DNA from: Klebsiella pneumoniae
GTDB lineage: Bacteria; Desulfobacterota; Binatia; Bin18
DNA: 64,000 bases
Direction: 5' to 3'
Assembly (NCBI GenBank): GCA_945865755.1
Contig: CAMBFS010000003.1
Coordinates: 1 to 64,000 of the forward strand
Both the position numbers and the translations under genes were made by a program. The notes beneath the pieces were generated by a model. That model ran no database searches, was not told the DNA's origin, and saw nothing but the letters and a program-made list of their open reading frames with translations. Below are positions 8,838 through 55,579 of the stretch, one piece after another. The number at the start of each line of letters is the position of its first letter. Position 1 is the first letter of the stretch.

Positions 8838-8921
8838 AAAGCTTACGGCAAAAGTGCGCGGAAAGAAATCTGGTAATCATGGGCAGGTGTCAACCCGTCA
8901 CTCACTCGCTGACTCAATCTC

Positions 8922-16326: not shown

Positions 16327-16396
16327 TGCTCCCGATGAGCAATGGTATGAAGTTGAGGCAGGTGCTGTCCTGGGAGTAGGGGCGTCCTGGGAGTAG

Positions 16397-16418
16397 GGGC
16401 GAAAAATTTTTCGCCCCT
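16397..16418. terminator. perfect palindrome GGGGCGAAAAATTTTTCGCCCC between convergent genes (bidirectional terminator)
   Basis: 11-bp perfect-stem palindrome with A/T tract on both sides; preceded by duplicated GTCCTGGGAGTAGGGGC. Confidence 0.6.
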
Positions 16419-16430
16419 ACAGCAGCACCC

Positions 16431-18053
16431 CTATTTCTTTAACGACCGCCTATACGCCGCTACTGCTTCTTTTGGAGCACCGTCGAATTGTAAGGTCCCG
16501 TTTTTCAGCCACACTGCCCGCGTACAGACCTGTTCGACAAACGCGAGATTATGCGTCACCACCATCACCGCTTTGGCGGCCTCAATCAGGTCGCGAATTT
16601 TCATGCTGGCTTTCTCATAAAAGGCGATGTCCCCGACATTGAGCGCTTCGTCGAGAATGAGCAGGTCCGGGTTGATCGCGGTGGCCACGCTGAACCCCAA
16701 CCGCACCCGCATCCCACGGGAATAATGTTTCACCGGCTCGTCAATGATGCGCTCCAGCCCGGAAAACTTCACGATCTCATCGTAGACTTCGTGTAGACGC
16801 CACTTGGGAATCCCCATCATCATGCCGTTGAGATACACATTGTCTCGGCCCGTGAGCTGTTCGTTAAAGCCGGTTCCGAACGTCAACAAGGCGGTGAGCG
16901 CTCCTCTGAGCACGACCTCTCCTTGGTCGGCTTGCAAGATGCCACTGAGCGCCTGACACAGCGTCGTTTTCCCTGCCCCATTGGGTCCAATGACCCCGAC
17001 CACTTCCCCTTCGTTAACGGTCAACGTCAGGTCGCGCAGTGTCCAAAACCGATCGTCGTCCGTTCGTCTGAGGATTGGGAGGAAAGCGGACGCACCCTTG
17101 GCGGACACGTCCGTGGTTGTCGGGGTTGTGCTCGCGCGTAAGGTGAACTGGACGCTGAGGTCTCGGACCTCAATGACCGGCGCTCCTGGCGACGGGGGGA
17201 TGATCTCGGGCATTGACGCGGTCACCGGGACCGTGGCTTTCTTTTGCGGACCTGCTTTGGGGATGGAGTCCGTGTAGGCACGGACCACTTCGGTCGCGTC
17301 TCCGTTCGCCTTGACCCTTCCGTTCGCGAGCCACAGTGCTCGCGAACAATAGCGTTCCACGAAGGAGAGTTGATGGGTGACAACGACGACCAGTTTGGCC
17401 TTCTCGGCCAGTTCCCGCATCTTGCGCCCGGCCTTTTCGCTAAACTCCAGGTCGCCCACACTCAAGGCTTCGTCGATTATCAGGATGTCGGGGTCGAGCG
17501 CCGTGGCCACGCTAAACCCCAACCGCGCCCGCATACCGCTCGAATAATGTTTGAGCGGCTGGTCAATAAAGCGCCCCAGACCGGCGAATTCGACAATGTC
17601 AGGCAGCGCGGTGGACAGCGCGCGCCGGGACACCCCTAACATCATGCCGTTCAACAGGATGTTGTCACGCCCGGACAGTTCCGCCTGAAATCCGACGCCA
17701 AGCGAGAGCAGGGTGGACACCGTCCCGGCAATGCGCAAACTGCCGGTATCGGGCCGCAGCAGACCACAGATCGTTCGACAGAGGGTGGTTTTGCCCGCCC
17801 CATTGCCCCCAATGATGCCGATGACCTCCCCTGCGGAAGCCGCCATATCGACCTCTTGGAGTGCCCAGCGCACTTCGGGCTTTCGCCGATGCCGACGGGA
17901 GAAGATGCCGTACGTCAGCGACTGCAGGTCTTCGCGTTTCGTGCCCAGCTCATATTTGATCCCGATATTCACCGCCTCCAGCAGCGATTTTCCCTGGGGG
18001 AGACCGACTTCTGGGACGGCCGCGAGCGGGGCAGGGATAAGACTCACGTTCAA
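16431..18053 (-). CDS. ABC transporter ATP-binding protein with two tandem NBDs (Wzt/KpsT/TagH-like)
   Basis: two Walker A motifs (GGNGAGKTTL, GPNGAGKTTL), two signature/Walker B sets; KpsT/Wzt-like context motifs. Confidence 0.85.
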   Translation of the reverse strand: MNVSLIPAPLAAVPEVGLPQGKSLLEAVNIGIKYELGTKREDLQSLTYGIFSRRHRRKPEVRWALQEVDMAASAGEVIGIIGGNGAGKTTLCRTICGLLRPDTGSLRIAGTVSTLLSLGVGFQAELSGRDNILLNGMMLGVSRRALSTALPDIVEFAGLGRFIDQPLKHYSSGMRARLGFSVATALDPDILIIDEALSVGDLEFSEKAGRKMRELAEKAKLVVVVTHQLSFVERYCSRALWLANGRVKANGDATEVVRAYTDSIPKAGPQKKATVPVTASMPEIIPPSPGAPVIEVRDLSVQFTLRASTTPTTTDVSAKGASAFLPILRRTDDDRFWTLRDLTLTVNEGEVVGVIGPNGAGKTTLCQALSGILQADQGEVVLRGALTALLTFGTGFNEQLTGRDNVYLNGMMMGIPKWRLHEVYDEIVKFSGLERIIDEPVKHYSRGMRVRLGFSVATAINPDLLILDEALNVGDIAFYEKASMKIRDLIEAAKAVMVVTHNLAFVEQVCTRAVWLKNGTLQFDGAPKEAVAAYRRSLKK

Positions 18054-20364: not shown

Positions 20365-20638
20365 GAAGGGGAGTTGGGGGCAGTTGAAGGCAGTTGGGGA
20401 CAGTTTAGGGCAGTTGGGGACAGTTTAGGGCAGTTGGAGGCAGTTTAGGGCAGTTAGGGACAGTCGGGAACAGTGCTCAGTCCCTCAAGCCCTTGTTGTT
20501 CTAACTCCGAAATCCCAACTGCCTTCAACTGCCCTGAACTGTTTTCAACTGCCCCTAACTGCTTTCAACTGTCCCCAACTGTCCCCAACTGTCCCCAACT
20601 GCCCCCAACTGCCCCCAAGCCCCCAAGCCCCCAACTGT
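20365..20638. repeat. intergenic inverted tandem arrays: ~10 x GCAGTTGRRG then ~12 x CYYCAACTGC (reverse complements), filling the entire gap between two stop codons
   Basis: direct reading: cagttgggggcagttgaaggcagttgggga… then …caactgccttcaactgccctgaactg…ccccaactgtccccaactg. Confidence 0.8.
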
Positions 20639-23115: not shown

Positions 23116-23206
23116 ACGACCTCCTTTTGATGAAGCCTGTGGTGCAGGGAGATCAGATGGTATAGCGCAGAATTGGGCGGGTTGGCGAGCGCCGGTGCCT
23201 ACAAGA

Positions 23207-23411
23207 GCAATGGCATTAAGTTAAGGAAGTTTTTGTCGCAGGGGAAATCACCCCCACGCCGCCCCTTGCCGGGGACTGAACTCCCCGGCTACCCTCATGG
23301 CCTCGCTCCGCGAGGCCAGAGACGCCGCAGAGCGGCGTATGAGGGTAGCCGGGGGTTTCAACCCCCGGTTTGCTGCGAGCGGCGACTTTCGGCTTAACTT
23401 AATGCCATTGC
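23207..23411. mobile_element. MITE-like element copy A (205 bp; TIR GCAATGGCATTAAGTTAAG / CTTAACTTAATGCCATTGC; flanked by ~ACAAGA duplication)
   Basis: terminal inverted repeats read directly; internal long self-complementary arms (CCGGGGGTTTCAACCCCCGG, GCTACCCTCA…TGAGGGTAGC); same element at 29821..30025. Confidence 0.7.
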
Positions 23412-23468
23412 CCACAAGAGGAGGTGCGCACCGTGCTGGGATTTCTGGTGGTCATCCTAGCCTATCGC

Positions 23469-29686: not shown

Positions 29687-29820
29687 AGGTCATCCTTATG
29701 TCTTGTGAACAATATCGCCTTCTCGAAATACGCGAGGATTTAGCATGTTGTTGGTGTGAGGGGCCACCACCTCGTATCACGAAGCAGAGACGTTGTTTCC
29801 AGGTTCCCTCTCCCGGATGG

Positions 29821-30025
29821 GCAATGGCATTAAGTTAAGCCGAAGCGTCACTGCTCGCTGCGAGCCGGGGGTAAAACCCCCGGCTACCATCCACAGCCCC
29901 TCCGGGGCTGATCGACACACCCCAGCGGGGTGTTTGGAGGGTAGCCAGGGGTAGGACTCCTGGCGAATGGCGGCGAGGGGGCAGCTTCCAGCATAACAAA
30001 AACTCCCTTAACTTAATGCCATTGC
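29821..30025. mobile_element. MITE-like element copy B (205 bp) inserted in loop of a 40-bp palindromic element with perfect 8-bp TSD CCGGATGG
   Basis: same TIRs as copy A (opposite orientation); flanks …tccctctcccggatgg | element | ccggatgggagagggtcagggtgaggggg. Confidence 0.75.
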
Positions 30026-30027
30026 CC

Positions 30028-30057
30028 GGATGGGAGAGGGTCAGGGTGAGGGGGAGC
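30028..30057. repeat. right half of REP-like palindromic element R1 split by MITE copy B (left half 29803..29820)
   Basis: removing element plus one TSD copy restores TCCCTCTCCCGGATGGGAGAGGGTCAGGGTGAGGGGG. Confidence 0.65.
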
Positions 30058-30106
30058 TGAATGTGATTACCGAGCCACGCCCTACCGCTGGCCCGGGAAA
30101 AGACAA

Positions 30107-30674: not shown

Positions 30675-33600
30675 ATGGATTTGGCAACCCATCTCATTTT
30701 CGGACCCTTTCGGGTCGATCCTTTCAACAATCAATTGTGGCGGGGGGAGGAACAGATCGTGCTCCGCCCCATGTCAGTGAAGGTTTTGCTCGTATTAGCG
30801 GAGTGCGCGGGGGAGGTGGTCACGAAAGAGGAGTTATTCAAACGCGTGTGGGCGGGGGTTCGCGTGACCGATACCGTCATTCGCGTCTGTATCCGCGAGA
30901 TTCGCCAGGCCTTGGTGGATTCCGCACAAACCCCGCAATATATCGAAACCGTCGGGCGGCGCGGCTATCGGTTTCTCGGCATTCCCAATGATGGACATCC
31001 GTCCGACGCCTTACCACGGAAGCCAGCCGCGGCACCCCTGATCGTGGGACGCACCCACGAGATCACGCGGCTGCAGCAGTGGTTTCGTCGCGTGGGACAA
31101 GGGGACCGGCAGATTCTCTTTATCACGGGAGAGCCAGGTATCGGAAAGACCACGACCGTTGATGTGTTCCTTGCGCGGGTGCGGGCCACGGGGTTGATCC
31201 GCATTGGGCGTGGCCACTGCGTGGAGCACTATGGCCAAGGGGAAGCCTATATGCCGATCCTGGAAGCCCTTGTCCGGTTGACGCGCGAGCCAGGGGGCGC
31301 GCGCCTGCTCGCGATCCTCAGTCGCCATGCCCCGACGTGGCTGATGCAAATGCCGTCACTGCTGAGTAGCGAAGAGTTCACCCAGCTTCAGCGCCGCACT
31401 CAAGATGCCACCCCGCAACGCATGCTGCGCGAAATGGCCGAGGTGCTCGAGGTGCTCACGGCGGAACGGCCGTTCATTCTCGTGCTCGAGGATTTGCACT
31501 GGAGTGACGAATCGACGATCGCCTTGCTGGCGACGCTGACGCAGCGACAAGAGCGCGCCCAGCTCATGGTCATTGGCACCTACCGCCCATCAGACGTGGC
31601 GAGCACCCATCCCTTGCGGGCCCTCAAGCAGGAATTGCAACTCCGTGATCATTGGAAAGAACTCGCTCTCGGTTTCTTGACCGAGCAAGAAGTGCAGGAG
31701 TACGTCGCCGGACAGTTGCCAGAACATGTGGTATCGGACACATTGGCCCACGCGATTTATCGCCGCACGGAGGGCAGCCCCTTATTCATGGCCAACGTGG
31801 TCACGGCGTTGGCGGAGCAATACCCCCAAGAAGCAGGGGCTGGTCGCCAGCACGACGCCTTCCATAGTCAGAAACTCAAGATTCCCGAAAATCTCCACCA
31901 GGCCATCGCGCAACGGGTCGCGCGGCTCGACCCCAACGAACGCGCCATCCTTGAAGCCGCCAGTGTGGTCGGCATGGAATTTACCGCAGCCGTGGTGGCC
32001 GCAGCCGTCGGGAAAACCCTGATTGACGTCGAAGAGCATTGCGGGGAACTGGCCCGACGTAAACATTTCATTCAGGCAAAAGAGACGGTCGAGTGGCCGG
32101 ACGGGACGGTCACCGCCTGCTACGAGTTCATTCATGCGTTGTACCAAGAGGCATTGTATGAGCGGGTCACTGGCGGGAAACGCGTTGAACTGCATCAGCG
32201 TGTCGGGGAATCTCTTGCGCACGGCTACCGCGACCGCAGTCACGAGATCGCCGCGGAATTGGCCGTGCATTTCGAACAGGGCCGAGATTTTCATCGTACG
32301 GTTCAGTATTTGGGACACGCCGCGGACAACGCGAACCAACGCTGCGCCTACCCTGAAGCACTCCTGCTCCTCAGGAGAGCGCTGGATACCCTCAAAAAGC
32401 TCGCGGACAATCCAGAGCGAGCACAGCGGGAGATTACGCTGCAGACTGCTCTCGGTATGTCACTCATGGCAACCAAAGGCTATGCGGCTCCCGAAGTGAA
32501 GTCAGCCTATGATCGTGCACGAGAACTCTGCCTTCAGGTCGGGGAGACCCCACAACTTGTCTCGGTTCTACGCGGATTAGCCATGTTTTATTACGTTCGC
32601 GCGGAGTTGCAAACCGCGAGAGCTATCGCGGAGCAGCTCCTTGATCTTGTCCAGTCGCAACAAGACCGAGCCCTACTCATCCAAGCCTCTTACGGTATGG
32701 GAGGAACCCTATTTAACCTTGGAGAATTGCCCATTGCTTATCATTATCTGCAACGAACAATGCTCTTTTACCATTCCTATAAGTCCGAATCTCCCACTTA
32801 TCTTTCTGCTCAGGATACGGCGATATATTGTCTAACTCGCATGTCGTACGTTTTGTGGGTTCTTGGCTATCCCGATCAAGCCCTTGTCAAAAGCCAAGAG
32901 GGAATCTCTTTATCTCAAGAATTGGCTCTCCCACATAACCTGGCCTACACATCGACCTTTGCCGCCGGCCTCCGCATGTTCTACCGGGAAGATCAGGTCG
33001 CCCAGCAGTGCGCGGAGGAAGCAAAGCGACTCGCCACGGAGCACGCGTTTCCCATTTGGGCTGCTATGGGACGGATTCTTGGTGGCGGGGCGCTTGTCCA
33101 CCAAGGCATGACCGAACAAGGCATCCAGCAGATCGAAAGCGGGATCGCGACCTGGCGGGCGATTGGGGCACGAATCTCGATGCCCTATTTCCTCACCCTT
33201 CTCGCGGAGGCCTACGGCAAAAGTGGGCATCCGGAAAAAGGGCTACGGCTCCTCACGGAATCCCTAGCGCTCACCAACAGCACGGAGGAGCGCTGGTGGG
33301 AGGCGGAACTCCACCGTCTCAAAGGCATGCTCACGCTTGAGGCGAGCGGCTGGCGGCTCGAGCATCGGCCCTCTTCCCACGTCTCACGTCTCAAGCCTCC
33401 AGTCTCTAGTGTGGTGGCGCACGAGGCGGAGCAGCATTTCCTGAAGGCCCTGGAGGTTGCCCGACGACAAGAGGCGAAATCCCTTGAGCTCCGGGCGGCT
33501 ATGAGCCTCGCGCGGCTGAAGCAGCGACAACAAAAATCGAGTGAAGCACTCGCCCTTCTGGAAGGCGTATACAACTGGTTCACGGAAGGATTCGAGACCG

Positions 33601-33764
33601 CTGACCTCCAAGACGCCAAGCATCTGCTCGAGGAACTACGCGTACCGAGAAGTCCCATGCCTGTCACCACGGTGCCGCGGGCCAAAACTAAACGGAAATC
33701 CACGAGCACCCGCCAACCGGAAGCCGAAGCGGAGTCGCGCGCGGCACGGTCTGAGCGGGGATAA
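30675..33764 (+). CDS. transcriptional regulator paralog 3: OmpR-type winged helix + STAND ATPase + TPR
   Basis: ATG at 30675; same architecture (GEPGIGKT, LVLEDLHWSD, TPRs, C-terminal …VYNWFTEGFETADLQDAKHLLEEL); ~40-50% identity to paralogs 1/2. Confidence 0.85.
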   Translation: MDLATHLIFGPFRVDPFNNQLWRGEEQIVLRPMSVKVLLVLAECAGEVVTKEELFKRVWAGVRVTDTVIRVCIREIRQALVDSAQTPQYIETVGRRGYRFLGIPNDGHPSDALPRKPAAAPLIVGRTHEITRLQQWFRRVGQGDRQILFITGEPGIGKTTTVDVFLARVRATGLIRIGRGHCVEHYGQGEAYMPILEALVRLTREPGGARLLAILSRHAPTWLMQMPSLLSSEEFTQLQRRTQDATPQRMLREMAEVLEVLTAERPFILVLEDLHWSDESTIALLATLTQRQERAQLMVIGTYRPSDVASTHPLRALKQELQLRDHWKELALGFLTEQEVQEYVAGQLPEHVVSDTLAHAIYRRTEGSPLFMANVVTALAEQYPQEAGAGRQHDAFHSQKLKIPENLHQAIAQRVARLDPNERAILEAASVVGMEFTAAVVAAAVGKTLIDVEEHCGELARRKHFIQAKETVEWPDGTVTACYEFIHALYQEALYERVTGGKRVELHQRVGESLAHGYRDRSHEIAAELAVHFEQGRDFHRTVQYLGHAADNANQRCAYPEALLLLRRALDTLKKLADNPERAQREITLQTALGMSLMATKGYAAPEVKSAYDRARELCLQVGETPQLVSVLRGLAMFYYVRAELQTARAIAEQLLDLVQSQQDRALLIQASYGMGGTLFNLGELPIAYHYLQRTMLFYHSYKSESPTYLSAQDTAIYCLTRMSYVLWVLGYPDQALVKSQEGISLSQELALPHNLAYTSTFAAGLRMFYREDQVAQQCAEEAKRLATEHAFPIWAAMGRILGGGALVHQGMTEQGIQQIESGIATWRAIGARISMPYFLTLLAEAYGKSGHPEKGLRLLTESLALTNSTEERWWEAELHRLKGMLTLEASGWRLEHRPSSHVSRLKPPVSSVVAHEAEQHFLKALEVARRQEAKSLELRAAMSLARLKQRQQKSSEALALLEGVYNWFTEGFETADLQDAKHLLEELRVPRSPMPVTTVPRAKTKRKSTSTRQPEAEAESRAARSERG

Positions 33765-37337: not shown

Positions 37338-37445
37338 AAATAAGAAACAGCGCTGTAGCCCGGATGGAACGGAGTGGAATCCGGGGTCCTGCCGCTTTCC
37401 CCCGCGCCTTCCTGGATTACGCTTCGCTTCATCCAGGCTACTCGC

Positions 37446-37545
37446 TGACTACTGACTACTGACTACTGACTACTGACTACTGACTACTGACTACTGACTA
37501 CTGACTACTGACTACTGACTACTGACTACTGACTACTGACTACTG
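37446..37545. repeat. (TGACTAC)14 perfect heptamer microsatellite
   Basis: 14 perfect units read directly, 80 bp upstream of 37628 start. Confidence 0.9.
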
Positions 37546-37627
37546 TTCCCCTATCTTTGCCTTTTGCCTTCTGATTTTCCCTTGAGAGCCTTGTGCGAAC
37601 ACCGAGGATTTCCTACACTGCGCGGCC

Positions 37628-41552: not shown

Positions 41553-43297
41553 GGCACGGAGTCTCCGCGACTGAGAGACACCAGGGTCGCGGCCGCGGCA
41601 TCAATTGGCACTTCGGTGCTTTGCGTCTCGGTTCGGCGTTTCAACTCGACCATGCCGCGCGCCAGGGATTTCGGTCCAATGGTCACGCGCAAGGGGATAC
41701 CGATCAGGTCCGCGTCCTTGAACTTCACGCCCGGACGTTCATCGCGATCATCCAGCATCACATCAACTCCCGCGGCCAGCAGGGTCGTGTACAATTTTTC
41801 TCCGGTCTGGCGTATCGTCTCATCGTTCGAGTTCACTGGGATGATGGTGACCGTCGCCGGTGCGAGCGCCAGCGGCCACTGAATGCCATTGGCATCGTGA
41901 TTTTGTTCAATGGCGGCGGCCACGGTGCGGGTGATGCCAATGCCGTAGCAGCCCATTTCAATCACATGATCTTGCCCTTGCGCGTCTTGATAGGTCGCGC
42001 CTAACTTTTTGCTATATTTCGTGCCCAGATAAAAAGTTTGGCCGACTTCAATGCCACGATGGGACGTGAACGTGCCGTCCGGGCAGCGTGGGCACGCATC
42101 GCCGGCGCGGGCTTGGCGAAGGTCCACGAACTTGAGGGCCGATACATCGCGGCCAAGGTCCAGACCAGTCAAATGATAATCGCGTTCGTTGGCACCGCAA
42201 ATCAGGTTCGCTCCACCACGCAATGCCCAATCACTGAGGATGGTGGCCTTGATGCCAATGGGACCAGCGAACCCCGTCGGGGCGTTGGTGGCTTTGACCA
42301 CGGTGTCTTCGTCCGCCATCGCCACCCACTGACAGCCGAGCGCGGTTTTGAGTTTCGCTTCGCTCAGTTCGTGATCGCCACGCACCAACGCGGCCACCAC
42401 GGTCCCGGTGTCGGTGACATAGACTAATGTCTTGATGCAGTGGCTCGGCGCTGCGCCCAAAAATGCCGCGACCTCGTCAATCGTACGTTGGTCAGGTGTG
42501 TGGACCTTTTTCAAGGACTGAGGACTGAGGGCCGTGGACTGAGCAGACTCCGAACTCCGAACTCCGAACTCCGAACCGCTTGGCAGTTCGGCTTTTTCGA
42601 CGTTGGCGGCGTAGGTGCATTTGTTGCAACTGACAATGGCATCTTCGCCAGACGCAGCCAGCACCTGGAATTCGTGCGAGAGCGTTCCACCAATCGCGCC
42701 GGTGTCCGCTTCGACGGGACGATAGGTCAAGCCACAGCGGTCGAAAATGCGACGGTAGGTGTCGAACATGTTCTGATATTCGCGCTGACAGTCGGCGAAA
42801 TCGGTGTGGAAGGAATAGGCATCCTTCATAATGAACTCGCGTCCGCGCATCAAGCCAAAGCGAGGACGGACTTCATCTCGGAACTTGGTCTGAATCTGAT
42901 AGAGGTTTAGCGGCAAGTCGCGATACGAGCGAATATCGCGGCGCACGATGTCGGTGACGACTTCTTCATGCGTCGGGCCGAAACAAAACTCTCGATCATG
43001 GCGGTCTTTGAGCCGCAGCAGCTCCTTGCCGTATTGTTCCCAGCGTCCGCTTTCTTGCCACAGTTCGGCGGGACAGACCGCGGGCATGAGGATTTCTTGC
43101 GCGCCGGCGCGGTTCAGCTCGTCGCGGACAATCGCTTCGACCTTGCGCACGACGCGGAGACCAAGTGGGAGAAAGTCATAAATGCCGCGCGCCACCTGGC
43201 GAATCATGCCAGCGCGAACGAGCAACTTGTGACTAATGACTTCCGCCTCGGCGGGATCGTGGCGAAGCGTGGGAATGAACGTGTGACGGTAGCGCAT
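41549..43297 (-). CDS. proS: proline--tRNA ligase (bacterial type with INS editing domain)
   Basis: MRYRHTFIPTLRHDPAEAEVISHKLLVRAGMIRQ… class II motifs and full-length match to bacterial ProRS. Confidence 0.95.
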   Translation of the reverse strand: MRYRHTFIPTLRHDPAEAEVISHKLLVRAGMIRQVARGIYDFLPLGLRVVRKVEAIVRDELNRAGAQEILMPAVCPAELWQESGRWEQYGKELLRLKDRHDREFCFGPTHEEVVTDIVRRDIRSYRDLPLNLYQIQTKFRDEVRPRFGLMRGREFIMKDAYSFHTDFADCQREYQNMFDTYRRIFDRCGLTYRPVEADTGAIGGTLSHEFQVLAASGEDAIVSCNKCTYAANVEKAELPSGSEFGVRSSESAQSTALSPQSLKKVHTPDQRTIDEVAAFLGAAPSHCIKTLVYVTDTGTVVAALVRGDHELSEAKLKTALGCQWVAMADEDTVVKATNAPTGFAGPIGIKATILSDWALRGGANLICGANERDYHLTGLDLGRDVSALKFVDLRQARAGDACPRCPDGTFTSHRGIEVGQTFYLGTKYSKKLGATYQDAQGQDHVIEMGCYGIGITRTVAAAIEQNHDANGIQWPLALAPATVTIIPVNSNDETIRQTGEKLYTTLLAAGVDVMLDDRDERPGVKFKDADLIGIPLRVTIGPKSLARGMVELKRRTETQSTEVPIDAAAATLVSLSRGDSVP

Positions 43298-43412
43298 GAA
43301 AGTATCGCTTCAGGAGAGTGTGTAAATTTGCCCGCACCTAAACAGTGCCAAAGAAAGGTGTCAAGAAGGGCGATTGGCTCATCATCAGTTGTGATACGCA
43401 CAACAAGAAGCA

Positions 43413-43555
43413 CACCGGGGGTTGAAACCCCCGGCTACCCTCAAATGCCGCTCTGCGGCATGTTTGACCTCGCGGAGCGAGGCCATGAGGGTAGACGGGG
43501 AGTTCAGTCCCCGGCGCGAGGTGGCGTGGGGGCTTCCTTCACTTCATGCCATTGC
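43413..43555. mobile_element. MITE-like element copy C, 5'-truncated (right TIR CTTCACTTCATGCCATTGC retained), again abutting R1 right half
   Basis: aligns to reverse complement of copy A from CCGGGGGTTGAAACCCCC to right TIR. Confidence 0.6.
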
Positions 43556-43592
43556 CCGGCTGGGAGAGGGTCAGGGTGAGGGGGATCGAGTG
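43556..43592. repeat. R1 REP-like element right half (CCGGCTGGGAGAGGGTCAGGGTGAGGGGGAT)
   Basis: read directly; same as 30026..30057. Confidence 0.6.
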
Positions 43593-43601
43593 AACCGTTC
43601 C

Positions 43602-45371
43602 TTATTTGTTCTCCGGCAAGGCGAACACAATCAGCGCGCTTCCTTTGCTTGAGATCGGCGGTTCCCCCGCGAGTGGGGCCATGATCCCGCCGCCACCAGA
43701 AGGAACCGCCACATACTGCTGCCCATCAATCTTATAGGTGGCCGGTTGCCCACGCAGGGACGCGCCGGTCTGGAATTTCCACAGCACCTTGCCTGTGGTG
43801 TCATCAAAAGCCATCACATGCCCTTCTTGATTCCCCGTGAACACCAGTCCTCCCGCCGTGGTCAGAGTGCCGCCAAGGAGCGGGTACTCTTCCTTATGTC
43901 GCCACTTCACGGCACCAGTGGTCGGATCAATGGCCGACAAGTGCCCGTAAGAGGATTGATCGTCACCCTGAGTTTTATCCCAGCCACCACCCCAATACGG
44001 AATGCCTTGCACGAACATGGCCTCGGCCTTCTTCATTTGCATACAGCTCTCGATCACCGGCACGTACATCAACTTAGTTGTCTGACTGTAAGAGGCCGTG
44101 TACGCGCTATTCTTCCCACCTGGCGCGCCTGGACAAATCCACTCTTTCGCTTCGGACTGTGGGACAAACTTGGGGTCCACGATCGGACGCCCTTTTTCAT
44201 CCAGCCCTTTGGCCCAGTTCAACTGTTCGACATACGGCGAGCCGTGGAGAAATTGCCCGGTGGTGCGATCCAACACATACATGAAGCCGTTACGGTTCGG
44301 CTGCGCGAGCGCTTTGACGTTCTGCCCGTTCCGCACCACGTTGACGAGAAAGAGATCGGTATTGCCGTCGTAATCCCACACATCGTGCGGCGTGAACTGG
44401 AAATGCCACTTGATCGCGCCGGTATCGGGATTCATCGCGAGCACGGAGTCGGTGTACAAATTGTCTCCCGCGCGCATATCCCCATTCCAATCCGGGGCCG
44501 CGTTGCCCGCCGCCCAGAACAGCACATCTTGTTCGGCATCATACGAACCAGTGACCCAGGTGGGGCCGCCGCCATATTTCCAGGAGTCGCCCGCCCAGGT
44601 CTCGACGCCCTTTTCTCCTGCTCCTGGAACGGTATAGGTGCGCCACTTGCGCGCACCCGTTTTGACATCGTAGGCATCGATATACCCGCGAACGCCATAT
44701 TCCCCACCTGACATGCCGACAATCACTTTATCCTTGACCACGAGCGGCGCGACGGTGGAGCTAAAGCCGTCGGCATATTTATCCATCTCCACGTTCCACA
44801 CCACTTTGCCGGTCCTCCGGTCGAGGGCGACCACGCGGGCATCCAGCGTGCCCATGAACACCTTGTCATCGGCGATCGCCACGCCTCGATTCGTTGGTCC
44901 GCAGCAAACCCGTAAATCGTCGGGCAGCGGATGGTCATATTTCCACAACGGGTCGCCGGTCACCGCATCCAGCGCGAAGACATGGTTGTAAGACGTGGTG
45001 ATATACATCATGCCGTCGGCGATGACTGGGGACGTTTCAAACTGCGTGGGGATACCGGTTTGGAACATCCACGCGACGCGGAGCTTTTTCACATTCTCGC
45101 GATTGATGTCGGTGAGCGGACTAAAGCGCCAGCTCTCGTAATTGCCGCCATACATCAACCACGCGGACGGATCGTCCGTTCCCTTGAGCAACCGCTCGGC
45201 GGTGACGGGTTTGAGATCGTAGGTTTTCTTGCCATCTTGCGCGTGCCCAGAGAGGGGCAACGCCATCAGCAGGCCGCCCACCAGTACAGTCACACCTCGT
45301 TGCCATGTTCGTTGCATAGTGTCTCCTTTTTTTTCACGAATCAGACGTGCCGGATTGTCTGTCCGCCGCAC
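43602..45371 (-). CDS. xoxF: PQQ-dependent dehydrogenase, methanol/ethanol family, XoxF-type (lanthanide-type D-Y-D signature)
   Basis: 8-bladed quinoprotein W-motif propeller, ~590 aa, signal peptide (likely start at MQRTWQ…, ~45317); …HDVWDYDGN… carries the extra Asp two residues after the catalytic Asp. Confidence 0.8.
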   Translation of the reverse strand: MRRTDNPARLIREKKGDTMQRTWQRGVTVLVGGLLMALPLSGHAQDGKKTYDLKPVTAERLLKGTDDPSAWLMYGGNYESWRFSPLTDINRENVKKLRVAWMFQTGIPTQFETSPVIADGMMYITTSYNHVFALDAVTGDPLWKYDHPLPDDLRVCCGPTNRGVAIADDKVFMGTLDARVVALDRRTGKVVWNVEMDKYADGFSSTVAPLVVKDKVIVGMSGGEYGVRGYIDAYDVKTGARKWRTYTVPGAGEKGVETWAGDSWKYGGGPTWVTGSYDAEQDVLFWAAGNAAPDWNGDMRAGDNLYTDSVLAMNPDTGAIKWHFQFTPHDVWDYDGNTDLFLVNVVRNGQNVKALAQPNRNGFMYVLDRTTGQFLHGSPYVEQLNWAKGLDEKGRPIVDPKFVPQSEAKEWICPGAPGGKNSAYTASYSQTTKLMYVPVIESCMQMKKAEAMFVQGIPYWGGGWDKTQGDDQSSYGHLSAIDPTTGAVKWRHKEEYPLLGGTLTTAGGLVFTGNQEGHVMAFDDTTGKVLWKFQTGASLRGQPATYKIDGQQYVAVPSGGGGIMAPLAGEPPISSKGSALIVFALPENK

Positions 45372-45477
45372 CCTACTGATTTTTGCTCAGCCGAGCAAGG
45401 GAACGAAGGCGGGAGTCAAAGGCGAAAGAGCGTCGATAAACAAGAGGATTTCGTGGGAAGACAGAGGGGTCTGAAAG

Positions 45478-45521
45478 TTCCCTCTCCCGGCTGGGAGAGG
45501 GCTAGGGTGAGGGGGATCAAG
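45478..45521. repeat. R1 REP-like palindromic element, intact copy (TTCCCTCTCCCGGCTGGGAGAGGGCTAGGGTGAGGGGGATCAAG)
   Basis: 8-bp stem CCCTCTCC/GGAGAGGG with 6-nt loop plus G-rich tail. Confidence 0.65.
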
Positions 45522-45545
45522 AAGTGAGTGTCCACGACATTCTCT

Positions 45546-46568
45546 TCAGTTCCCTTGGATATGATTCCCCAGGTACATGACGCTCCAAACCTGGCTACCA
45601 TCTGGGGTAGGAATCGAGGTCCACGTGTCTCCGGCATCGGTGGACCAGTAAAGCGACCCGTCATCAAGGCTCATTACTGCTTGTCCGGTTGGTGAGAGCG
45701 CGATTGAGCTGACAACTTTGTAGTTGCCTGGATAATCGCGAAAAACAAGACGCCAACTCGCTCCGTTGTCAGTGGATTTCCATACGCCAGAATCAGGCAA
45801 GCCTGGTGAAGAAGACCCGTCACAATCCAACCTCATGCCCCCTGTGAGGAGCACACTGCCGGGTCCTTCGACTTGGTTCCACGTCATCGCCCAGGGCAGC
45901 CAGAACATGATCCAGTGGGGAAGGATAGTGAACCGCGTCCAACTGATCCCCTTGTCCGTGGAACGGTAGAGCCCTTGTGATTGCTCCTCTAATGGGATTA
46001 GAGCCGAAGCGTAAGCTTTTCCAGATCGTAGCAGTGTGCCGTTGCCAATATACCATGGGCCTTCGGCAAGATTGATGTGGTAGCTCGGCCCATGAGCATA
46101 CAGTGTCGCACTGGCTCCTAAGTCTGGAGAATAGAGAACGCCGCACTCTGTGTAGATGTCGGTATAGCCCGCAAGGCAGCCATCGACGACCAATTCGGTC
46201 CCTCCCAGATAGGCAAGGTTACCTTTTATAACGAACCCGGGAATGGTGAACTCCCCAAAAGTGCGTCCGCCGTCGGTCGATTTCATGCCCTCGGAGTCAA
46301 GCAAGAGGTGGTCGTGCACATAGAACCCCGTCCCCCAAAATCCCCACCCACCATCGCCCAATCTCTCCCAGCCATCTGCGCCCAAAGGTGTTCCACTCGT
46401 GGTAGGGGCGAGGACGGTAAGTGCCCAGGCTGGTGTACAAGAGAAAGGACGTGGGGAGATTGATTTTCCGAGCCGCCACGGCAATCGCCTTCTCCTCCCC
46501 CATATCGCCCTGAAAGACCAGCATATACTCGCCGGGCGTTTTGGGAGCGGGCACCGAAGGTGGAGCAA
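45546..46568 (-). CDS. BNR/Asp-box repeat beta-propeller protein (start uncertain: ATG at 46286 or fused by frameshift to upstream gene)
   Basis: repeated S-x-D-x-G-x-T-W motifs (STDGGRTF, STDKGISW, STDNGASW, STDAGDTW); ORF overlaps 3' end of 46297..47928 in another frame. Confidence 0.55.
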   Translation of the reverse strand: MLHLRCPLPKRPASICWSFRAIWGRRRRLPWRLGKSISPRPFSCTPAWALTVLAPTTSGTPLGADGWERLGDGGWGFWGTGFYVHDHLLLDSEGMKSTDGGRTFGEFTIPGFVIKGNLAYLGGTELVVDGCLAGYTDIYTECGVLYSPDLGASATLYAHGPSYHINLAEGPWYIGNGTLLRSGKAYASALIPLEEQSQGLYRSTDKGISWTRFTILPHWIMFWLPWAMTWNQVEGPGSVLLTGGMRLDCDGSSSPGLPDSGVWKSTDNGASWRLVFRDYPGNYKVVSSIALSPTGQAVMSLDDGSLYWSTDAGDTWTSIPTPDGSQVWSVMYLGNHIQGN

Positions 46569-47928
46569 GGGCGGGCAGAGGCATAGTTTGATCTTTGGCT
46601 AACCCAGCCTCCGGCGTCGGCCACGGCTTGGCCTTGGTGCTGTCATTGGGGTCCGGGTCGACGGGATGACGCTTGCCGTCCACATCGTCGTAGTACAACG
46701 TGAAGGTCCCTTTCAGTAATTCGCTGCCTTCGTTCTTGATGACGCGCGAACCTGGGTTTTGGCTGTCGTCCACGACCGCAATCTTGCCGCGAAAGAAGTA
46801 GTTGATGAGGCCCGCGCTGTAGCCCACCGCGCGGGGCAGGAGTTTTCTTGCATACCCTTCATGGACTTTATTCGTGAGAACGTAGCCCCCACGTAGCGGG
46901 GGTGTTTGATTTTGCTCAAGCCGTTCATACCATACCCCTTCCGCGACAAAGCGCTGAACCGGTTCTCCGTCCGTGGCCAGCTTTGGGAAATACCGCCGAT
47001 AGCCTCCCTCTTCAGGCTCAAAAGTGCCAGCTCCCAGCCCTTCGGTTCGTGGTAACGGAAAATCGGTAAAAATAGTATCGGCGCTGACAAAGTTCGCGTT
47101 CGAATATTCCGCAAGGCCAATGTTGAACCCGGTCAACAGACTTGGGACCAATGCGCCCGTATAGGTGTCGCTATCAATAAGCCGTGCGATGGGGACTGGG
47201 GCGAGGGAGTTGGCATACGGCGCGGTTAGCAGCTCCTCGGCAGGATAATCTGGCGACTGGTTGAGAAACGCGAAAAAACAATGAAGTCCACCGGTACTGC
47301 AAATATCTGTCTCTTCTCCCAGCCGAGCATATTCCGCCCACCGTTCGTAGGGATCCTTGTCCGGCCCCACGACTATGTGCGCGTCATCACGCGTATGGGC
47401 GGGGACCGAAGCGTCTTGGATCAAATGCACTGCGTTCCCGAGCGTTCGAAAGGTTTCGGCAAACCACTGTTCCCGGTCGGTTGGCGCGCCCGCAGTCAAC
47501 GCTTGCTCGTAGTAACGGCGCGCACTCGGCCAGCCACGCTCTAAGCCTACTCCCCAGGCGTCCAGACTACTGAGCTGCTCTGCGCTCTGCTGCCAGACGA
47601 TGGAAGACTGCGACCCCAGCAGGAGCGTTTTCCCGGCCGACTCCCAAGGCATGAAAGGATTATGGAAATGATGGGTTACCCGACTGGGAGGCCAATCTTC
47701 GAGTGCCGCCCCTTCGCCAAGCCACTTTTGTAGGGTCTTTTCCTTGAAGATTGAATCAATACCGTCGGGTATTCCTAACTCGTCTTTCAATATCTGATCA
47801 ACATGTGACACCTCAGGCTTTGCTGCCTGTTCGGCTATAGCTCGGTGTGTATCTGGTCTATATGCGTGTCCCGTTTCATAAGCCCCAACACACAGAAGGA
47901 AGAGAAGCAATTTTATGGCTTGTTTCAT
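46297..47928 (-). CDS. secreted zinc-dependent phospholipase C / S1-P1 nuclease superfamily protein
   Basis: signal peptide; H-x3-D-x3-P-x-H zinc-binding motif (HLIQDASVPAH) as in PLC/P1 nuclease. Confidence 0.55.
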   Translation of the reverse strand: MKQAIKLLLFLLCVGAYETGHAYRPDTHRAIAEQAAKPEVSHVDQILKDELGIPDGIDSIFKEKTLQKWLGEGAALEDWPPSRVTHHFHNPFMPWESAGKTLLLGSQSSIVWQQSAEQLSSLDAWGVGLERGWPSARRYYEQALTAGAPTDREQWFAETFRTLGNAVHLIQDASVPAHTRDDAHIVVGPDKDPYERWAEYARLGEETDICSTGGLHCFFAFLNQSPDYPAEELLTAPYANSLAPVPIARLIDSDTYTGALVPSLLTGFNIGLAEYSNANFVSADTIFTDFPLPRTEGLGAGTFEPEEGGYRRYFPKLATDGEPVQRFVAEGVWYERLEQNQTPPLRGGYVLTNKVHEGYARKLLPRAVGYSAGLINYFFRGKIAVVDDSQNPGSRVIKNEGSELLKGTFTLYYDDVDGKRHPVDPDPNDSTKAKPWPTPEAGLAKDQTMPLPALAPPSVPAPKTPGEYMLVFQGDMGEEKAIAVAARKINLPTSFLLYTSLGTYRPRPYHEWNTFGRRWLGEIGRWWVGILGDGVLCARPPLA

Positions 47929-47930
47929 AA

Positions 47931-48587
47931 CTATCTCCTGAAGCCAAGAAAGGCACGTTCAGCCATTTCGGCTTCCTTGAGGTGCTGCTTTTGCTGCAAT
48001 GGAACTGCAGAGGCCTCATTGAATTCGTGATAAAAATCTAACCGCTCTTCTTTCGTCTTGAGCGGCGGCAACTCGATCACCGCACCCTCGCCCTCAAAGC
48101 GAGCCCATTGCTCGTGATACCATTGCTCAAGGATTGGTCTGTGTTGCTCCACTTGGCGACGCTGCTCCGCGGGTGGCAGCTTTTCCCGGAGTTTTTCCAG
48201 CGGATGCCTCTGGAAAGACCAGAGTCCGTACCCCGGCTTGAAGATCACTCGCTCTGGGCCTTCGTAGTGGGTTAGGAAAGGCAACAGCGGGACCAGGGAG
48301 CGACGCGCCGCGATGACAAACCGCCCATCTACTCCGGTCACGACCTCCTCGGAGTCATAATAGGTGCCCACACAGTGCGCATCGCCCAAGTAACAGCGCC
48401 TCCACCAAAACAACACGACGACACCTTCTAGTGGATGTCCCGTTTCAGCATCCACCACTTGCGCTCTCCACGGCCCTTTCCATGGTTTCGCGATGAGATT
48501 GTCAGTCCAAATAATCAGCCACCACACCCCAAGCAAGGTCAGATACGTCCCTACCAGCCACTTACAGGTACGTGTCCCAAGTCGCAT
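47931..48587 (-). CDS. membrane-anchored protein with carboxypeptidase-regulatory-like domain
   Basis: N-terminal TM helix; RAQVVDAETGHPLEGVVV…VDGRF pattern. Confidence 0.45.
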   Translation of the reverse strand: MRLGTRTCKWLVGTYLTLLGVWWLIIWTDNLIAKPWKGPWRAQVVDAETGHPLEGVVVLFWWRRCYLGDAHCVGTYYDSEEVVTGVDGRFVIAARRSLVPLLPFLTHYEGPERVIFKPGYGLWSFQRHPLEKLREKLPPAEQRRQVEQHRPILEQWYHEQWARFEGEGAVIELPPLKTKEERLDFYHEFNEASAVPLQQKQHLKEAEMAERAFLGFRR

Positions 48588-48605
48588 GTGTTCCTCCCCT
48601 GCGGT

Positions 48606-50246
48606 TTAGAAGCTCGTTAGCCGCCAGATTCCGTCGTCATCAATATGAAAGCGCACCTCAAAAGATTTGGTCATGGCGCCCGCAGGCCGGAGCATTTCAT
48701 AGCGCGCCTCACCGTCCCGAATCTCCTGGAGGCGAATCGTGGTTAAAATGGTGTCAATGTCTGGAAACGGCGGGGTCAGGGTCTGGAAGACCTCTTGATA
48801 CCGAGCACGCGACCTGCTCCCAATGTGGGTCAGCGCTTGCGCAATGTCTTCCCGCTGTAAGGCGTCTTTGAGCGCGTGCCACTTTGCTTGCAACAGTGCG
48901 TCCAGTGCGTTTGCGTCGAACACTTGGACAATAGTGCGCACTGTGCGTTTCCCTTGTGTCGTGGTAACGCTCGCGGTTGGGAAGTAAAGCCCAGGTTGCG
49001 AATAGGTAAAGGACTGTTCCTCCAAGGTTGCGCCCTCGAAGTCGGTGTGCCCGTCTCCATCTGCATCAAGTGCCACATGCGTGGGCAGCGCACTCACGGA
49101 ACCGAGGGCAATCAGGGTAAAGGTTGTGCGCAAGGGGGCTTGCCCGCTTTCCGCGCTCGCACTCAGAAAAAGGGCGACATTGTCAGCAGGGAGAGTCGGG
49201 GTAATCGTGATCTCATCGTTCACTGCACTCACTCCCGCCCTCGTCGCTTGCGCGGTTAAGGTTGTTGTAACAGTGGTCACGGGAACGAGCAGCGCGAAAT
49301 TCTCCCCTTGTACAGCAGCAACAACACCGTTGACGGTCACTCCCATATCAGGGCCGCCTCCGGTCACTATTCCGCGCACCATTACCATGCCGGTGGGAAC
49401 GCTGCTGCCGTTCGTTGGCGCAGTAATCTGGACGTTGAGCGCTCTGGCAACTTGAAGCGTGATTCCCGGACCAGCATTCCCCGCCGCATCTTGCACAATC
49501 ACCGAAAATGAGTCTCCCGCTTGCGCTGCCACTGTCGCGGTAAAACTCCCATCACCAGCCGCCGTCACCGTCGAGACCTGTCCTGTGCGCGCGTTGGTGA
49601 TCCGCACCTGACTACCACCTTCCACACTGCCCGCCGTGCCACTGACCGTCACCTGTCCGTTGCTCACCGTCCCCACGGTGATGCGCCCGCTCTGTGGGGC
49701 CGCCGGCGGTGTCGTGTCAATCGTGACCTGTCGCGTCGCCGGGAGCGACACATTGCCCGCGAAGTCCGCGACCGTCGCGCTCAGCGCCACCGCCCCTTCC
49801 GGTAACGCGCTGCCTGGGCGGCAGGCCAACTCTGGCGGCGTGATCGTGCAGGGGCTGGGAAACACCACCGTATTCGCCCGCAGTTGCAGCGTGCTGGGGT
49901 CCACTCCTTGGCCGCGATCACTCGCGCTCAGCGTCAACGGCGGACGATTCGTGTTCAGCACCGCGCCCGCCGCTGGCGTGAGAAAACTCAGCGTCGGCGG
50001 CAACAAATCGGTGTACAGCACCAGCGCCCGCAACCGGGTCGTGCCAAAAGTGCGCGTGTGGACGACTTGGCCGGTGAGACGGTAATGGCGTAGCGTCGCA
50101 TCCCGCGCCACCCACGCCGTGTGATCCACCGGGTCCGCCGCCAGCGCGACCACACTCGAACTGTCGTCATCATCTCCGCCACTATTGGGCAGCGAGTAGC
50201 CTGGATGAAGCGGAGCGAAATCCAGGGAGGTGGGTGGGAAATCCAC
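48606..50246 (-). CDS. surface protein with bacterial Ig-like (Big) domains and a PKD-like domain
   Basis: repeated …VTVSGTAG…VRITNARTG…DGSFTATV… Ig-like strands; PKD-like FTYSQPGLY…VTTTQG; no obvious signal peptide at annotated start. Confidence 0.55.
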   Translation of the reverse strand: MDFPPTSLDFAPLHPGYSLPNSGGDDDDSSSVVALAADPVDHTAWVARDATLRHYRLTGQVVHTRTFGTTRLRALVLYTDLLPPTLSFLTPAAGAVLNTNRPPLTLSASDRGQGVDPSTLQLRANTVVFPSPCTITPPELACRPGSALPEGAVALSATVADFAGNVSLPATRQVTIDTTPPAAPQSGRITVGTVSNGQVTVSGTAGSVEGGSQVRITNARTGQVSTVTAAGDGSFTATVAAQAGDSFSVIVQDAAGNAGPGITLQVARALNVQITAPTNGSSVPTGMVMVRGIVTGGGPDMGVTVNGVVAAVQGENFALLVPVTTVTTTLTAQATRAGVSAVNDEITITPTLPADNVALFLSASAESGQAPLRTTFTLIALGSVSALPTHVALDADGDGHTDFEGATLEEQSFTYSQPGLYFPTASVTTTQGKRTVRTIVQVFDANALDALLQAKWHALKDALQREDIAQALTHIGSRSRARYQEVFQTLTPPFPDIDTILTTIRLQEIRDGEARYEMLRPAGAMTKSFEVRFHIDDDGIWRLTSF

Positions 50247-50317
50247 GGAGCATCCCGGATTCCACTCCGTTCCATCCGGGCTACGGGACTTGAGACTTGG
50301 ACCTTGGACGGTCTGCG

Positions 50318-51175: not shown

Positions 51176-51210
51176 GTCATGTTCCTCAAAACACCGGGAA
51201 CCGGGGAAAG

Positions 51211-51244
51211 GGGTAAACGGTTAAAAGGGTAAACGGTTAAAAGG
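51211..51244. promoter_or_regulatory. perfect 16-bp tandem direct repeat GGTAAACGGTTAAAAG x2 upstream of hemQ
   Basis: read directly ~40 bp upstream of hemQ start codon. Confidence 0.3.
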
Positions 51245-51347
51245 AAAAATATATTTGAGAATCTTTCTTCTCCCATTTCCCCTTTGACCCATTTCCCCTT
51301 TTCCCCCGATTCCTCGTTTCCCTGGCTTGTTACTGAATTTTTGTTTT

Positions 51348-52700: not shown

Positions 52701-52802
52701 AATTTTTTTGCAGGCGGATACGACAGATACGACATGACTACCTGCCGCTGGATTTCAAGTCCTTGCCCAATGTCTTACTAACGAGAGTGACCGTATTGAC
52801 CG

Positions 52803-53258: not shown

Positions 53259-53478
53259 ACAGGTCCTCCCGTTGGAACGTGCATTCTTCAGGCCACGCTT
53301 CCCACTTCCAAGTGGCCAGTTTCAGCGGAGGCTTGAGAAGCCGTTCAGGAGAGAGCCTCGTGTGTGTCGTATCAATGACGACAACAACCCGATGCTCGCC
53401 TGGTGCTATGTTCGTGGGTAAACTGATGGTGAGTTTTCCGTCTCCTGTCACCACTGCTGTCGTTTCTATCGTTCGCAT
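53239..53478 (-). CDS. vapB: AbrB/MazE (SpoVT-AbrB) type antitoxin VapB
   Basis: swapped-hairpin N-terminus (…TTAVVTGDGKLTISLPTNIAPGEHRVVVVI), 79 aa, overlaps vapC. Confidence 0.65.
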   Translation of the reverse strand: MRTIETTAVVTGDGKLTISLPTNIAPGEHRVVVVIDTTHTRLSPERLLKPPLKLATWKWEAWPEECTFQREDLYGDYGR

Positions 53479-55530: not shown

Positions 55531-55579
55531 AGAATGAAGAATTCAAAATGAAGAATTTTAGGAATAGGGAGGATTCGCG

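Follow-up and report, generated by a model that had tools for sequence, protein, structure and literature searches.

A short palindromic repeat, R1, that has been split in its hairpin loop by a MITE raises the question of whether such hairpins are a preferred target of that MITE family and, if so, which property of the repeat is being recognised. Here, we describe one such locus (site B) together with its relatives in a 64-kb stretch of DNA, referred to as the window. At 29804-30056, an R1 of about 40 bp is cut at the hairpin tip by a 203-bp MITE (copy B), and reading of the sequence bears out the initial annotation, which had placed the break in the loop of R1. The parts of site B are as follows:

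29804-29821, + strand: left part of R1, TTCCCTCTCCCGGATGGG, made up of the C-stem TTCCCTCTC and the left copy of the target duplication, CCCGGATGGG, at 29812-29821
29822-30024, + strand: MITE copy B, a 'B-type' variant of type 1, 203 bp, with ends CAATGGCATTAAGTTAAG and CTTAACTTAATGCCATTG
30025-30056, + strand: right part of R1, CCCGGATGGGAGAGGGTCAGGGTGAGGGGGAG, made up of the right duplication copy (30025-30034), the G-stem GGGAGAGGG, the loop TCA and the third strand GGGTGAGGG

The terminal inverted repeats (TIRs) of copy B are perfect (18/19 nt), and the two copies of its target duplication are exact over 10 bp. Removing copy B and one duplication copy in silico regains R1, as had been claimed; the 8-bp duplication length given with that claim gives way to 10 bp once 40 complete copies are compared. 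The staggered cut spanned the loop and, to either side of it, the inner 3 bp of the stem, and was exactly centred on the hairpin. Two relatives, L282 (93%) and L283 (86%), have at this site neither the MITE nor a segment of about 113 bp that bears R1; R1 was gained here (or lost elsewhere) prior to MITE entry. Site B is a MITE, the non-coding relic of an IS4-family transposon, within the tip of a BoxC/triplex motif.

Further copies of both elements are found in the window:

45478-45517, + strand: intact, unoccupied R1, CCCTCTCCC GGCT GGGAGAGGG CTA GGGTGAGGG, with the published pattern discussed below at 45480-45513
60498-60537, - strand: intact R1 within a truncated type-2 MITE, matching in hairpin and tail
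60538-60567, + strand: end of the type-2 MITE, ...CGAACTTCATACCATTG, with its TIR at 60550-60567
60568-60583, + strand: half of a second R1, CCCAGCCGAGAGAGGG, without a tail, beside the type-2 MITE end, which marks another insertion into an R1 tip
23208-23410, - strand: MITE copy A, type 1, outside R1, with the duplication CC[T/C]ACAAGAG (9/10) at 23198-23207 and 23411-23420
43413-43554, + strand: MITE copy C, type 1, without its far TIR, right end at 43533-43554; a complementary remnant lies in relative L285
43555-43586, + strand: right part of R1, CCCGGCTGGGAGAGGGTCAGGGTGAGGGGGAT, adjoining MITE C, made up of the duplication-equivalent CCCGGCTGGG, the G-stem and the tail
16340-16358, + strand: variant TIR on its own, CAATGGTATGAAGTTGAGG, immediately following a stop codon, with no clear R1 flank

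Both intact R1 copies of the initial annotation are thus present, on opposite strands, as is its contact between MITE C and an R1 right half (junction 43554/43555); the MITE end at 60550-60567, which adjoins the R1 half at 60568-60583, is a fourth R1-MITE association that it had not listed. Copy A, like copy B, has perfect inverted repeats. None of these elements is expected by chance: the R1 hairpin occurs twice (0.00 expected from shuffles), its G-rich tail four times (0.01 expected) and the MITE TIR six times (0.00 expected). All four R1 tails and the one extra half lie between long ORFs, and the stop codon of a PQQ-dehydrogenase gene is found 19 nt past the tail of the R1 half at 43555-43586. 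The window also contains heptamer tandem repeats, for which a cyanobacterial source was considered; it was rejected, as HIP1 is rare in the window and the ProRS homologues (below) point to Binatia and 'Deltaproteobacteria'.

R1 is built of a 9-bp C-stem (CCCTCTCCC), a 4-nt loop, a 9-bp G-stem (GGGAGAGGG), a 3-nt loop and a second G-block; the palindrome of about 40 bp and the G-rich tail in the initial annotation hold, and its 8-bp stem does not. This build matches exactly, position for position, the TMECO pattern CCCTCNCCC-N3-6-GGGNGAGGG-N3-GGGNGAGGG (membership tested with one mismatch allowed), and the pattern is matched equally well by the R1 at 60498-60537 and by site B once reconstructed. 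On this exact fit, R1 is a local family of the known, widespread BoxC/PIT/TMECO triplex motif (TM) and no new REP. The earlier label 'REP-like' captures a generic resemblance only, in that R1, like the classical RAYT-associated REP/BIME elements, is a 20-40-bp imperfect palindrome that is extragenic and of high copy number; as an unnamed REP it does not stand, the pattern match giving it the name BoxC/PIT/TMECO. BoxC and PIT are earlier names of the TMECO motif, the literature on which includes work by Bachellier in the 1990s and by Hoyne/Maher in 2000 and of which there are 23 copies in E. coli K-12 and 3610 in 262 proteobacterial genomes (Holder et al., 2015; PMC4666352). Loci with this motif show raised rearrangement, and the same survey is explicit that it found the motif associated with neither transposons nor phages nor plasmids (PMC4666352).

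Like the motif as described, R1 is intergenic and multi-copy, and its presence varies between close relatives. It differs as follows: R1 resides in a Binatia-like MAG and the 2015 survey covered proteobacterial genomes; its orientation is biased relative to the upstream gene, whereas E. coli copies are unbiased; its local flanks are conserved; and it is physically linked to a transposon family, while the motif is also present in viral contigs, both being types of link that the 2015 authors sought and did not find. A related MAG, JANMSE01, has nine further R1 copies in 74 kb. Scans recovered the triplex motif in 56 IMG/VR viral contigs and, with one tail variant, at no fewer than 120 metagenome loci; 96 of the 120 listed loci, which are mostly from other taxa than the window's lineage, are plainly intact hairpins. 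With hundreds of contigs from metagenomes, genomes and viruses containing it, the motif is far more widespread than the 2015 survey found. Folding predicts the R1 hairpin, with unremarkable z-scores (-1.6).

The true ends of the MITE are CAATGG...CCATTG, with an 18-bp TIR (CAATGGCATTAAGTTAAG). When 40 complete copies of the family from other genomes were compared for ends and duplication, 32 had a duplication of at least 9 bp with at most one mismatch, of 10 bp (range 9-12); the 10-bp boundary is unambiguous at non-palindromic targets such as CTGTGGTGGG and CCCTCGCCCC, both from MITEs of other genomes. Published IS4-subgroup elements have the end signature -AATR--------WTW----, direct repeats of 10-13 bp and a size of 1400-1650 bp (De Palmenaer et al., 2008; PMC2266710), and CAATGGCATTAAGTTAAG fits that signature, with AATG at positions 2-5 and TTA at positions 14-16. 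A scan for the terminus CTTMACTTMATRCCATTGC (one genome per species) returned at least 102 loci, part of which are noise, chance matches being estimated at a few tens. The listed loci are from Acidobacteriota, Firmicutes, Bacteroidota, Binatia-like 'Deltaproteobacteria' MAGs, Patescibacteria and one archaeon, and most are non-coding elements of 65-240 bp with both ends. One of them, L140 (Agathobacter), a Firmicutes element from outside the window's lineage, is a full-length relative of 1620 bp, whose 445-aa ORF matches NF033592 (NCBIfam transpos_IS4_1; 185.9 bits against a cut-off of 115, E=1e-54) and Pfam DDE_Tnp_1 (PF01609); a Y(2)R(3)E(6)K motif is present at Y324. Another full-length relative, L107 (Hungatella; 1631 bp), has this transposase in decayed form and the 10-bp duplication CGTT[C/T]TAATG.

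The end signature, the 10-bp duplications and the full-length relatives with a DDE/YREK transposase together identify the window MITEs as non-autonomous derivatives of the IS4 family, subgroup IS4. They share with that subgroup the end signature, repeats of about 10 bp and 1.6-kb relatives with a single DDE/YREK transposase; target arms are strongly conserved in some members. They differ in being 100-230-bp non-coding derivatives, with no autonomous copy sampled in the lineage; tblastn found no IS4-type transposase gene in the window or in the Binatia-like related loci (about 150 kb of such DNA). The ISPepr1 subgroup, a guess from the 8-bp duplication, was rejected on the 10-bp duplication and the 5'-CA ends, as ISPepr1 elements terminate in CT, have repeats of 7-8 bp and insert into AT-rich targets (PMC2266710).

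At least four subfamilies of these MITEs can be told apart: type 1 (203 bp), type 2 (about 160 bp), type 3 (122 bp) and a 103-bp element in L286. Type-2 MITEs (L105, L154 and the partial copy at 60498-60567 of the window) contain a full R1 and are themselves within another R1. Half of the type-1 core aligns over the full 46-nt model of Rfam Acido-Lenti-1 (RF01687; Weinberg et al., 2010), with scores of 36.0 (copy A, the best), 30.5 and 24.2 bits, all below the gathering score of 37; at gathering thresholds, Rfam had no matches in the whole window or in 18 related loci. The Acido-Lenti-1 model comprises two hairpins and a GGCUA linker; in the MITE, this module is internal to a transposon relic, and a mirror-image second half lies on the other strand. 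Compensatory changes in the type-1 MITE were assessed by inspection, the automatic alignment being shifted by 1 nt in one arm.

The duplications reveal what the insertions have in common. Of 32 duplications, 25, 21 and 25 have C at positions 1, 2 and 3, respectively, and 21, 23 and 26 have G at positions 8, 9 and 10, which gives the target consensus CCC-N4-GGG, two-fold symmetric across the staggered cut. The tip of R1 (CCC-GGCT/GGAT/AGCC-GGG; CCC-GGMT-GGG) matches this consensus perfectly. Members of this MITE family in a Pyrinomonadaceae MAG are inserted in CCC-TGAC-GGG and CCC-TAAC-GGG, neither of which is a triplex motif; together with the Hungatella duplication, these sites indicate that the consensus varies among subfamilies and that R1 is not required. 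The preference for R1 is largely explained by the symmetric consensus. A symmetric consensus across the staggered cut is usual for IS4-family transposases, and IS10, for example, uses GCTNAGC. Another IS4-family element, IS231A, was reportedly found by Hallet et al. in 1994 to use the target GGG(N)5CCC with a 10-12-bp duplication; this would be a similar symmetric G/C-clamp spanning the duplicated segment, of opposite polarity (GGG...CCC rather than CCC...GGG), with a spacer of 5 rather than 4, and in a different subgroup. The rule CCC-N4-GGG with a 10-bp duplication is new here, having been derived in the present analysis and not taken from the IS4-subgroup literature.

R1 tips received three of the five MITE insertion events in the window. 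In JANMSE01 ('Deltaproteobacteria bacterium SOY_29_metabat_500'), which has the MITEs closest to those of the window, R1 or TM-like hairpins hold nine of 14 MITE ends, or seven of 11 events, and in MAG JABFSC01, one of two events is in R1; the loci from related MAGs were chosen by MITE end, which makes them unbiased for the whereabouts of MITEs and biased for the occupancy of R1. Insertions into R1 face either way relative to the G-tail, involve at least four MITE subfamilies and have different duplications (CCCGGATGGG, CCCGGCTGGG, CCCAGCYGGG and CCCTCAAGGG), and are therefore independent events. These observations support R1 hairpin tips as recurrent insertion sites of the MITE family. MITE A and several copies in the related MAG are outside R1, at weaker consensus sites.

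The association is lineage-specific: among the 120 listed metagenome matches to the triplex motif, one is occupied (L223, with the same duplication as copy B). E. coli genomes searched with the MITE/TM junction of a MAG labelled Enterobacteriaceae gave no match. Within the window there are about 20 distinct CCC-N4-GGG sites, of which those in R1 are occupied in 2-3 of 4-5 cases and the other 16 or so never (Fisher p = 0.03 to 0.008). All of the latter lie within long ORFs, so the enrichment at R1 is not separable from purifying selection; survivorship contributes, and R1 as such may not be what is recognised. The nucleotide-exact central position is beyond the reach of selection and follows from the consensus. 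Of the proposal that the MITE targets the loop of R1, recurrent insertion is retained, and recognition specific to R1 may give way to consensus and survivorship.

Recurrence can also be followed at one orthologous position. The spacer that separates the PQQ-dehydrogenase gene from proS has four states in four relatives, the window included: in L281 (ProRS 90% identical) it holds an intact R1 and no MITE; in the window, the R1 tail half and most of MITE C; in L285 (97%), a remnant complementary to that of the window, in which 33 nt of MITE end precede tCCCGCCGGGAGAGGGcacctggaag; and in L286 (92%), another MITE, of 103 bp, in a TM-like hairpin with the perfect duplication CCCTCAAGGG at 1177-1186 and 1290-1299. 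These states represent an empty site, an old shared insertion that has decayed differently in the window and in L285, and an independent second insertion in L286. The nearest named homologues of the window's ProRS are in 'Candidatus Binatia' and 'Deltaproteobacteria bacterium' MAGs, and the protein is 100% identical to one on the ENA metagenome contigs ERZ27280224 and ERZ27280310. A 1099-aa regulator had no match in an exact-protein look-up.

The reading that we consider probable is that IS4-subgroup MITEs insert at R1 tips through a preference for CCC-N4-GGG combined with the dispensability of the DNA immediately downstream of stop codons. Acting in trans, a DDE/YREK transposase would bind the MITE at its 18-bp ends, excise it by cut-and-paste and join it to a target cut with a stagger of 10 bp (one helical turn), which would leave the 10-bp duplication. 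The transposase subfamily of this lineage would favour CCC-N4-GGG, to which the R1 tip is a perfect match, and R1 tips, lying in dispensable DNA just after stop codons, would both collect and retain insertions. The ends, the length of the duplication, the consensus, the repeated independent insertions and the empty and filled orthologous sites are seen directly in the sequences; we infer such a transposase partner in the window's genome, the chemistry of these steps and how much target choice and selection each contribute.

Recognition of a structure, be it the extruded hairpin, a cruciform or an intrastrand triplex of R1, in place of the linear sequence would account for insertions that always fall exactly at the symmetric centre of the hairpin. 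It would also suit target arms that, outside the duplication, show a mild excess of C on the left and of G on the right, the 'spectacular' arm conservation described for some IS4-subgroup members (PMC2266710) and the stable triplex that a TM oligonucleotide forms in vitro (PMC4666352). Against it, no stable triplex was found in vivo (PMC4666352), the CCC-TGAC-GGG sites in Pyrinomonadaceae have little or no extended palindrome, and some targets are not palindromic at all (CTGTGGTGGG, CCCTCGCCCC and CCYACAAGAG). The complementarity of the arms beyond the duplication averages 4.4 of 10, slightly above the control value of 3.1. We see no need to invoke structure recognition, which we regard as rather unlikely.

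Pure survivorship, in which insertion is unselective or follows a loose consensus, genic insertions are purged and R1 simply marks neutral 3' spacers, draws on the position of R1 19-54 nt after stop codons and on the location of every non-R1 consensus site of the window inside a long ORF. Neutrality alone would scatter insertions over the spacers, however, and the same nucleotide of R1 is hit each time, with the duplication centred on the loop; in addition, the CCC/GGG consensus holds across phyla and at non-R1 sites. As a full explanation, survivorship is very unlikely, and we retain it as the selective component of the probable reading above.

Two further explanations deny that the insertions were separate or that R1 is a target. 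That the R1-MITE composites are duplicated or recombined copies of one ancestral composite could be read from R1 flanks that are themselves conserved over about 20-30 nt and from the duplication shared by copy B and L223, but it is highly improbable in view of the different subfamilies (203-bp type 1, about 160-bp type 2, 122-bp type 3 and the 103-bp element of L286), the two orientations, the different loop and duplication sequences noted above and the unrelated flanking genes. That the R1 halves belong to the MITE, with intact R1 copies as excision footprints or solo ends, is largely refuted despite flanks (CCCTCT.../...AGAGGG) that form inverted repeats adjoining the TIRs and despite the internal R1 of type-2 MITEs, because R1 flanks are absent from MITE A and from most of the family in other genomes, the 10 bp beside the ends are direct and not inverted repeats, the G-rich tail is one-sided, MITEs occur in both orientations relative to it, and the motif is intact without any MITE in 96 of the 120 listed metagenome loci and in E. 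coli.

IS homing to palindromic intergenic repeats has been documented for five IS families, with IS1397/ISKpn1 (IS3), IS621, ISPa11 and ISPpu9/10 (IS110), and ISRm22 (IS4 family) inserting into REP/BIME sequences (Tobes and Pareja, 2006; PMC1525189). ISRm22 inserts only into REPs, at palindromic sites with G/C at the duplication ends (PMC1525189). The initial annotation's analogy to this targeting is apt, given the recurrent R1-tip insertions and the IS4-family precedent: here too the insertion position is fixed within a short palindromic intergenic repeat, and the MITEs share with ISRm22 the IS4 family, palindromic sites and G/C at the duplication ends. The differences are that the target is a triplex motif and no classical REP, that the inserting elements are MITEs, and that occupancy of R1 is partial and not 100%. 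Already known, then, are the R1 motif, the IS subgroup of the MITE and IS targeting of REPs, including that by ISRm22; new are the link between the triplex motif and MITEs of the IS4 subgroup, the CCC-N4-GGG rule and the type-2 MITEs that carry R1 inside.

The understanding of how ISs target palindromic repeats is left unchanged by what is a fairly ordinary case. Its interest lies with the motif, which is among the most widely conserved short non-coding repeats of bacteria and has no accepted function: in at least one lineage, IS4-family MITEs have inserted into its tip repeatedly and with nucleotide precision, and they can carry the motif within themselves. Such traffic offers a concrete, testable route to the reported instability of TM loci. 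A broader proposal, that TM hairpins are landing pads for a pan-bacterial IS4-subgroup family, partly recognised by structure and giving rise to the 'genomic instability' of TM loci, with R1-bearing type-2 MITEs spreading the pad such that motif and transposon propagate each other, seems to us quite unlikely. The CCC-N4-GGG rule, in a very widespread IS4 subgroup, aids the annotation of MITEs and the reading of breaks in metagenome assemblies.

The initial annotation had further placed R1 at 3' intergenic positions, consistent with a role as terminator or mRNA stabiliser, and had called for its position to be compared with stop codons. The sequence after the R1 hairpin is AAUUUUC, AACUUUC or AACCUGG, none of which is a U-tract (at least 5 T in 8), a terminator scan of 43000-62000 reported no R1, and PIT/BoxC showed neither promoter nor terminator activity in E. 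coli (earlier study cited in PMC4666352). A terminator or mRNA-stabiliser role is not supported, and any 3'-end role of R1 is speculation. The 3' position itself is upheld: eight of 13 R1 tails follow the stop codon of a long ORF at a distance of 19-54 nt, their C-rich strand being the sense strand, and one has the opposite orientation (binomial p = 0.04). The conserved flank of R1, ...AAATAAGGAARGGTCACTYGATCCCCC, often provides the stop codon itself, a feature that sets the local family apart from BoxC/PIT/TMECO copies described elsewhere.

Counterparts of window positions 29687-30106, which include copy B of the 203-bp type-1 MITE, were compared in two relatives, together with other loci carrying R1, the ~40-bp triplex motif.

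Loci bearing R1, its flank or their counterparts
L282 2903-3001, relative's counterpart of window 29687-30106 (93% protein identity)
L283 2863-3001, relative's counterpart of window 29687-30106 (86% protein identity)
Window 43587-43604 and 60475-60497, also L084, L116, L154 and L105, conserved flank of R1 tail
L105 1725-1886, type-2 MITE
L154 ~1260-1420, type-2 MITE
Window 60498-60567, type-2 MITE

Both the MITE and an R1-bearing segment of ~113 bp, with a weak direct repeat at its junctions (GTCTTTTCC / GTCTCTGCTTCG), are absent from the two relatives; because the whole segment is missing, R1 itself is an insertion/deletion polymorphism. The flank adjoining the R1 tail is retained across copies (GGGGGATCRAGTGAYCYTTCCTTATTT; reverse complement AAATAAGGAARGGTCACTYGATCCCCC), and in several of them the upstream gene uses the TAA of this flank as its stop codon. 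All three type-2 MITEs have IS4-type ends in common with the other MITEs described here, contain R1 in full along with its conserved flanks, and are inserted at the tip of a further R1. Since they hold the full motif internally, the transposon can move its own target.

In the core of the type-1 MITE, one half gives an end-to-end alignment to the Rfam model of the Acido-Lenti-1 sRNA (RF01687), and the second half mirrors the first on the opposite strand.

Acido-Lenti-1 matches in type-1 MITE copies (gathering score 37)
Window 23323-23368, minus strand, copy A, 36.0 bits
Window 43415-43460, plus strand, copy C, 30.5 bits
Window 29865-29909, plus strand, copy B, 24.2 bits

Inspection revealed compensatory changes between copies A/C and copy B in 4/4 hairpins (e.g., GCCGC/GCGGC versus GCCCC/GGGGC), and type-1 copies fold far more strongly than shuffled sequences (z = -9 and -12). 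These features suggest that IS4-type MITEs may include the Acido-Lenti-1 "RNA" as a module.

The triplex-motif tail GGAGAGGGNNAGGGTGAGGGGG is also carried by 56 IMG/VR viral contigs (L001-L056), and the C-stem partner lies upstream of it in nearly every case. No phage association was reported in the main survey of the motif (Holder et al., 2015; PMC4666352).

Other placements of MITE ends were observed. At window 16340-16440, a solo terminal inverted repeat comes first, then two tandem copies of a 17-nt sequence (GTCCTGGGAGTAGGGGC) and a clean hairpin (GGGGCGAAAAATTTTTCGCCCC), in what looks like the remnant of one more MITE subfamily. In metagenome locus L233 (~6600), a diverged IS4-type end (GGCTTAACTTAATGGCAGTG) comes 4 nt after a triplex-motif tail, possibly a different mode of association in which the end lies beside the motif instead of within it. 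In an Ignavibacteriae MAG (L065, L114, L121), a long perfect palindrome (CCCCCGACCCCCTCTCC...GGAGAGGGGGTCGGGGG) follows the MITE end, and the MITE is next to a C/G-block hairpin, not inside it.

The window holds further repeats. Copies of one dispersed family (37355-37447 and 50190-50284), inverted to each other, share blocks of 36 nt (94% complementary) and 52 nt (88%) and resemble classical REP, with hairpins CCGGAT...ATCCGG and CCTGGAT...ATCCAGG preceded by GTAGCC. A heptamer tandem array, (CTGACTA)n, lies at 37431-37577, and a 10-nt periodic, GGGCAGTTTA-like array (20367-20476 / 20513-20624) has its inverted partner 43 nt away, with 102-nt arms that are 78% complementary. Other short G/T-rich tandem repeats (GGACCTTGGA, AGTCAAA) are scattered elsewhere. 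Two large minus-strand paralogues (2850-5907, 1018 aa; 8921-11726, 934 aa), spaced about 6.07-6.09 kb apart, have common blocks of 89-93% nucleotide identity, and their 3' ends are connected by a single pair of inverted repeats to the 3' end (33567-33641) of the gene for the 1099-aa regulator.
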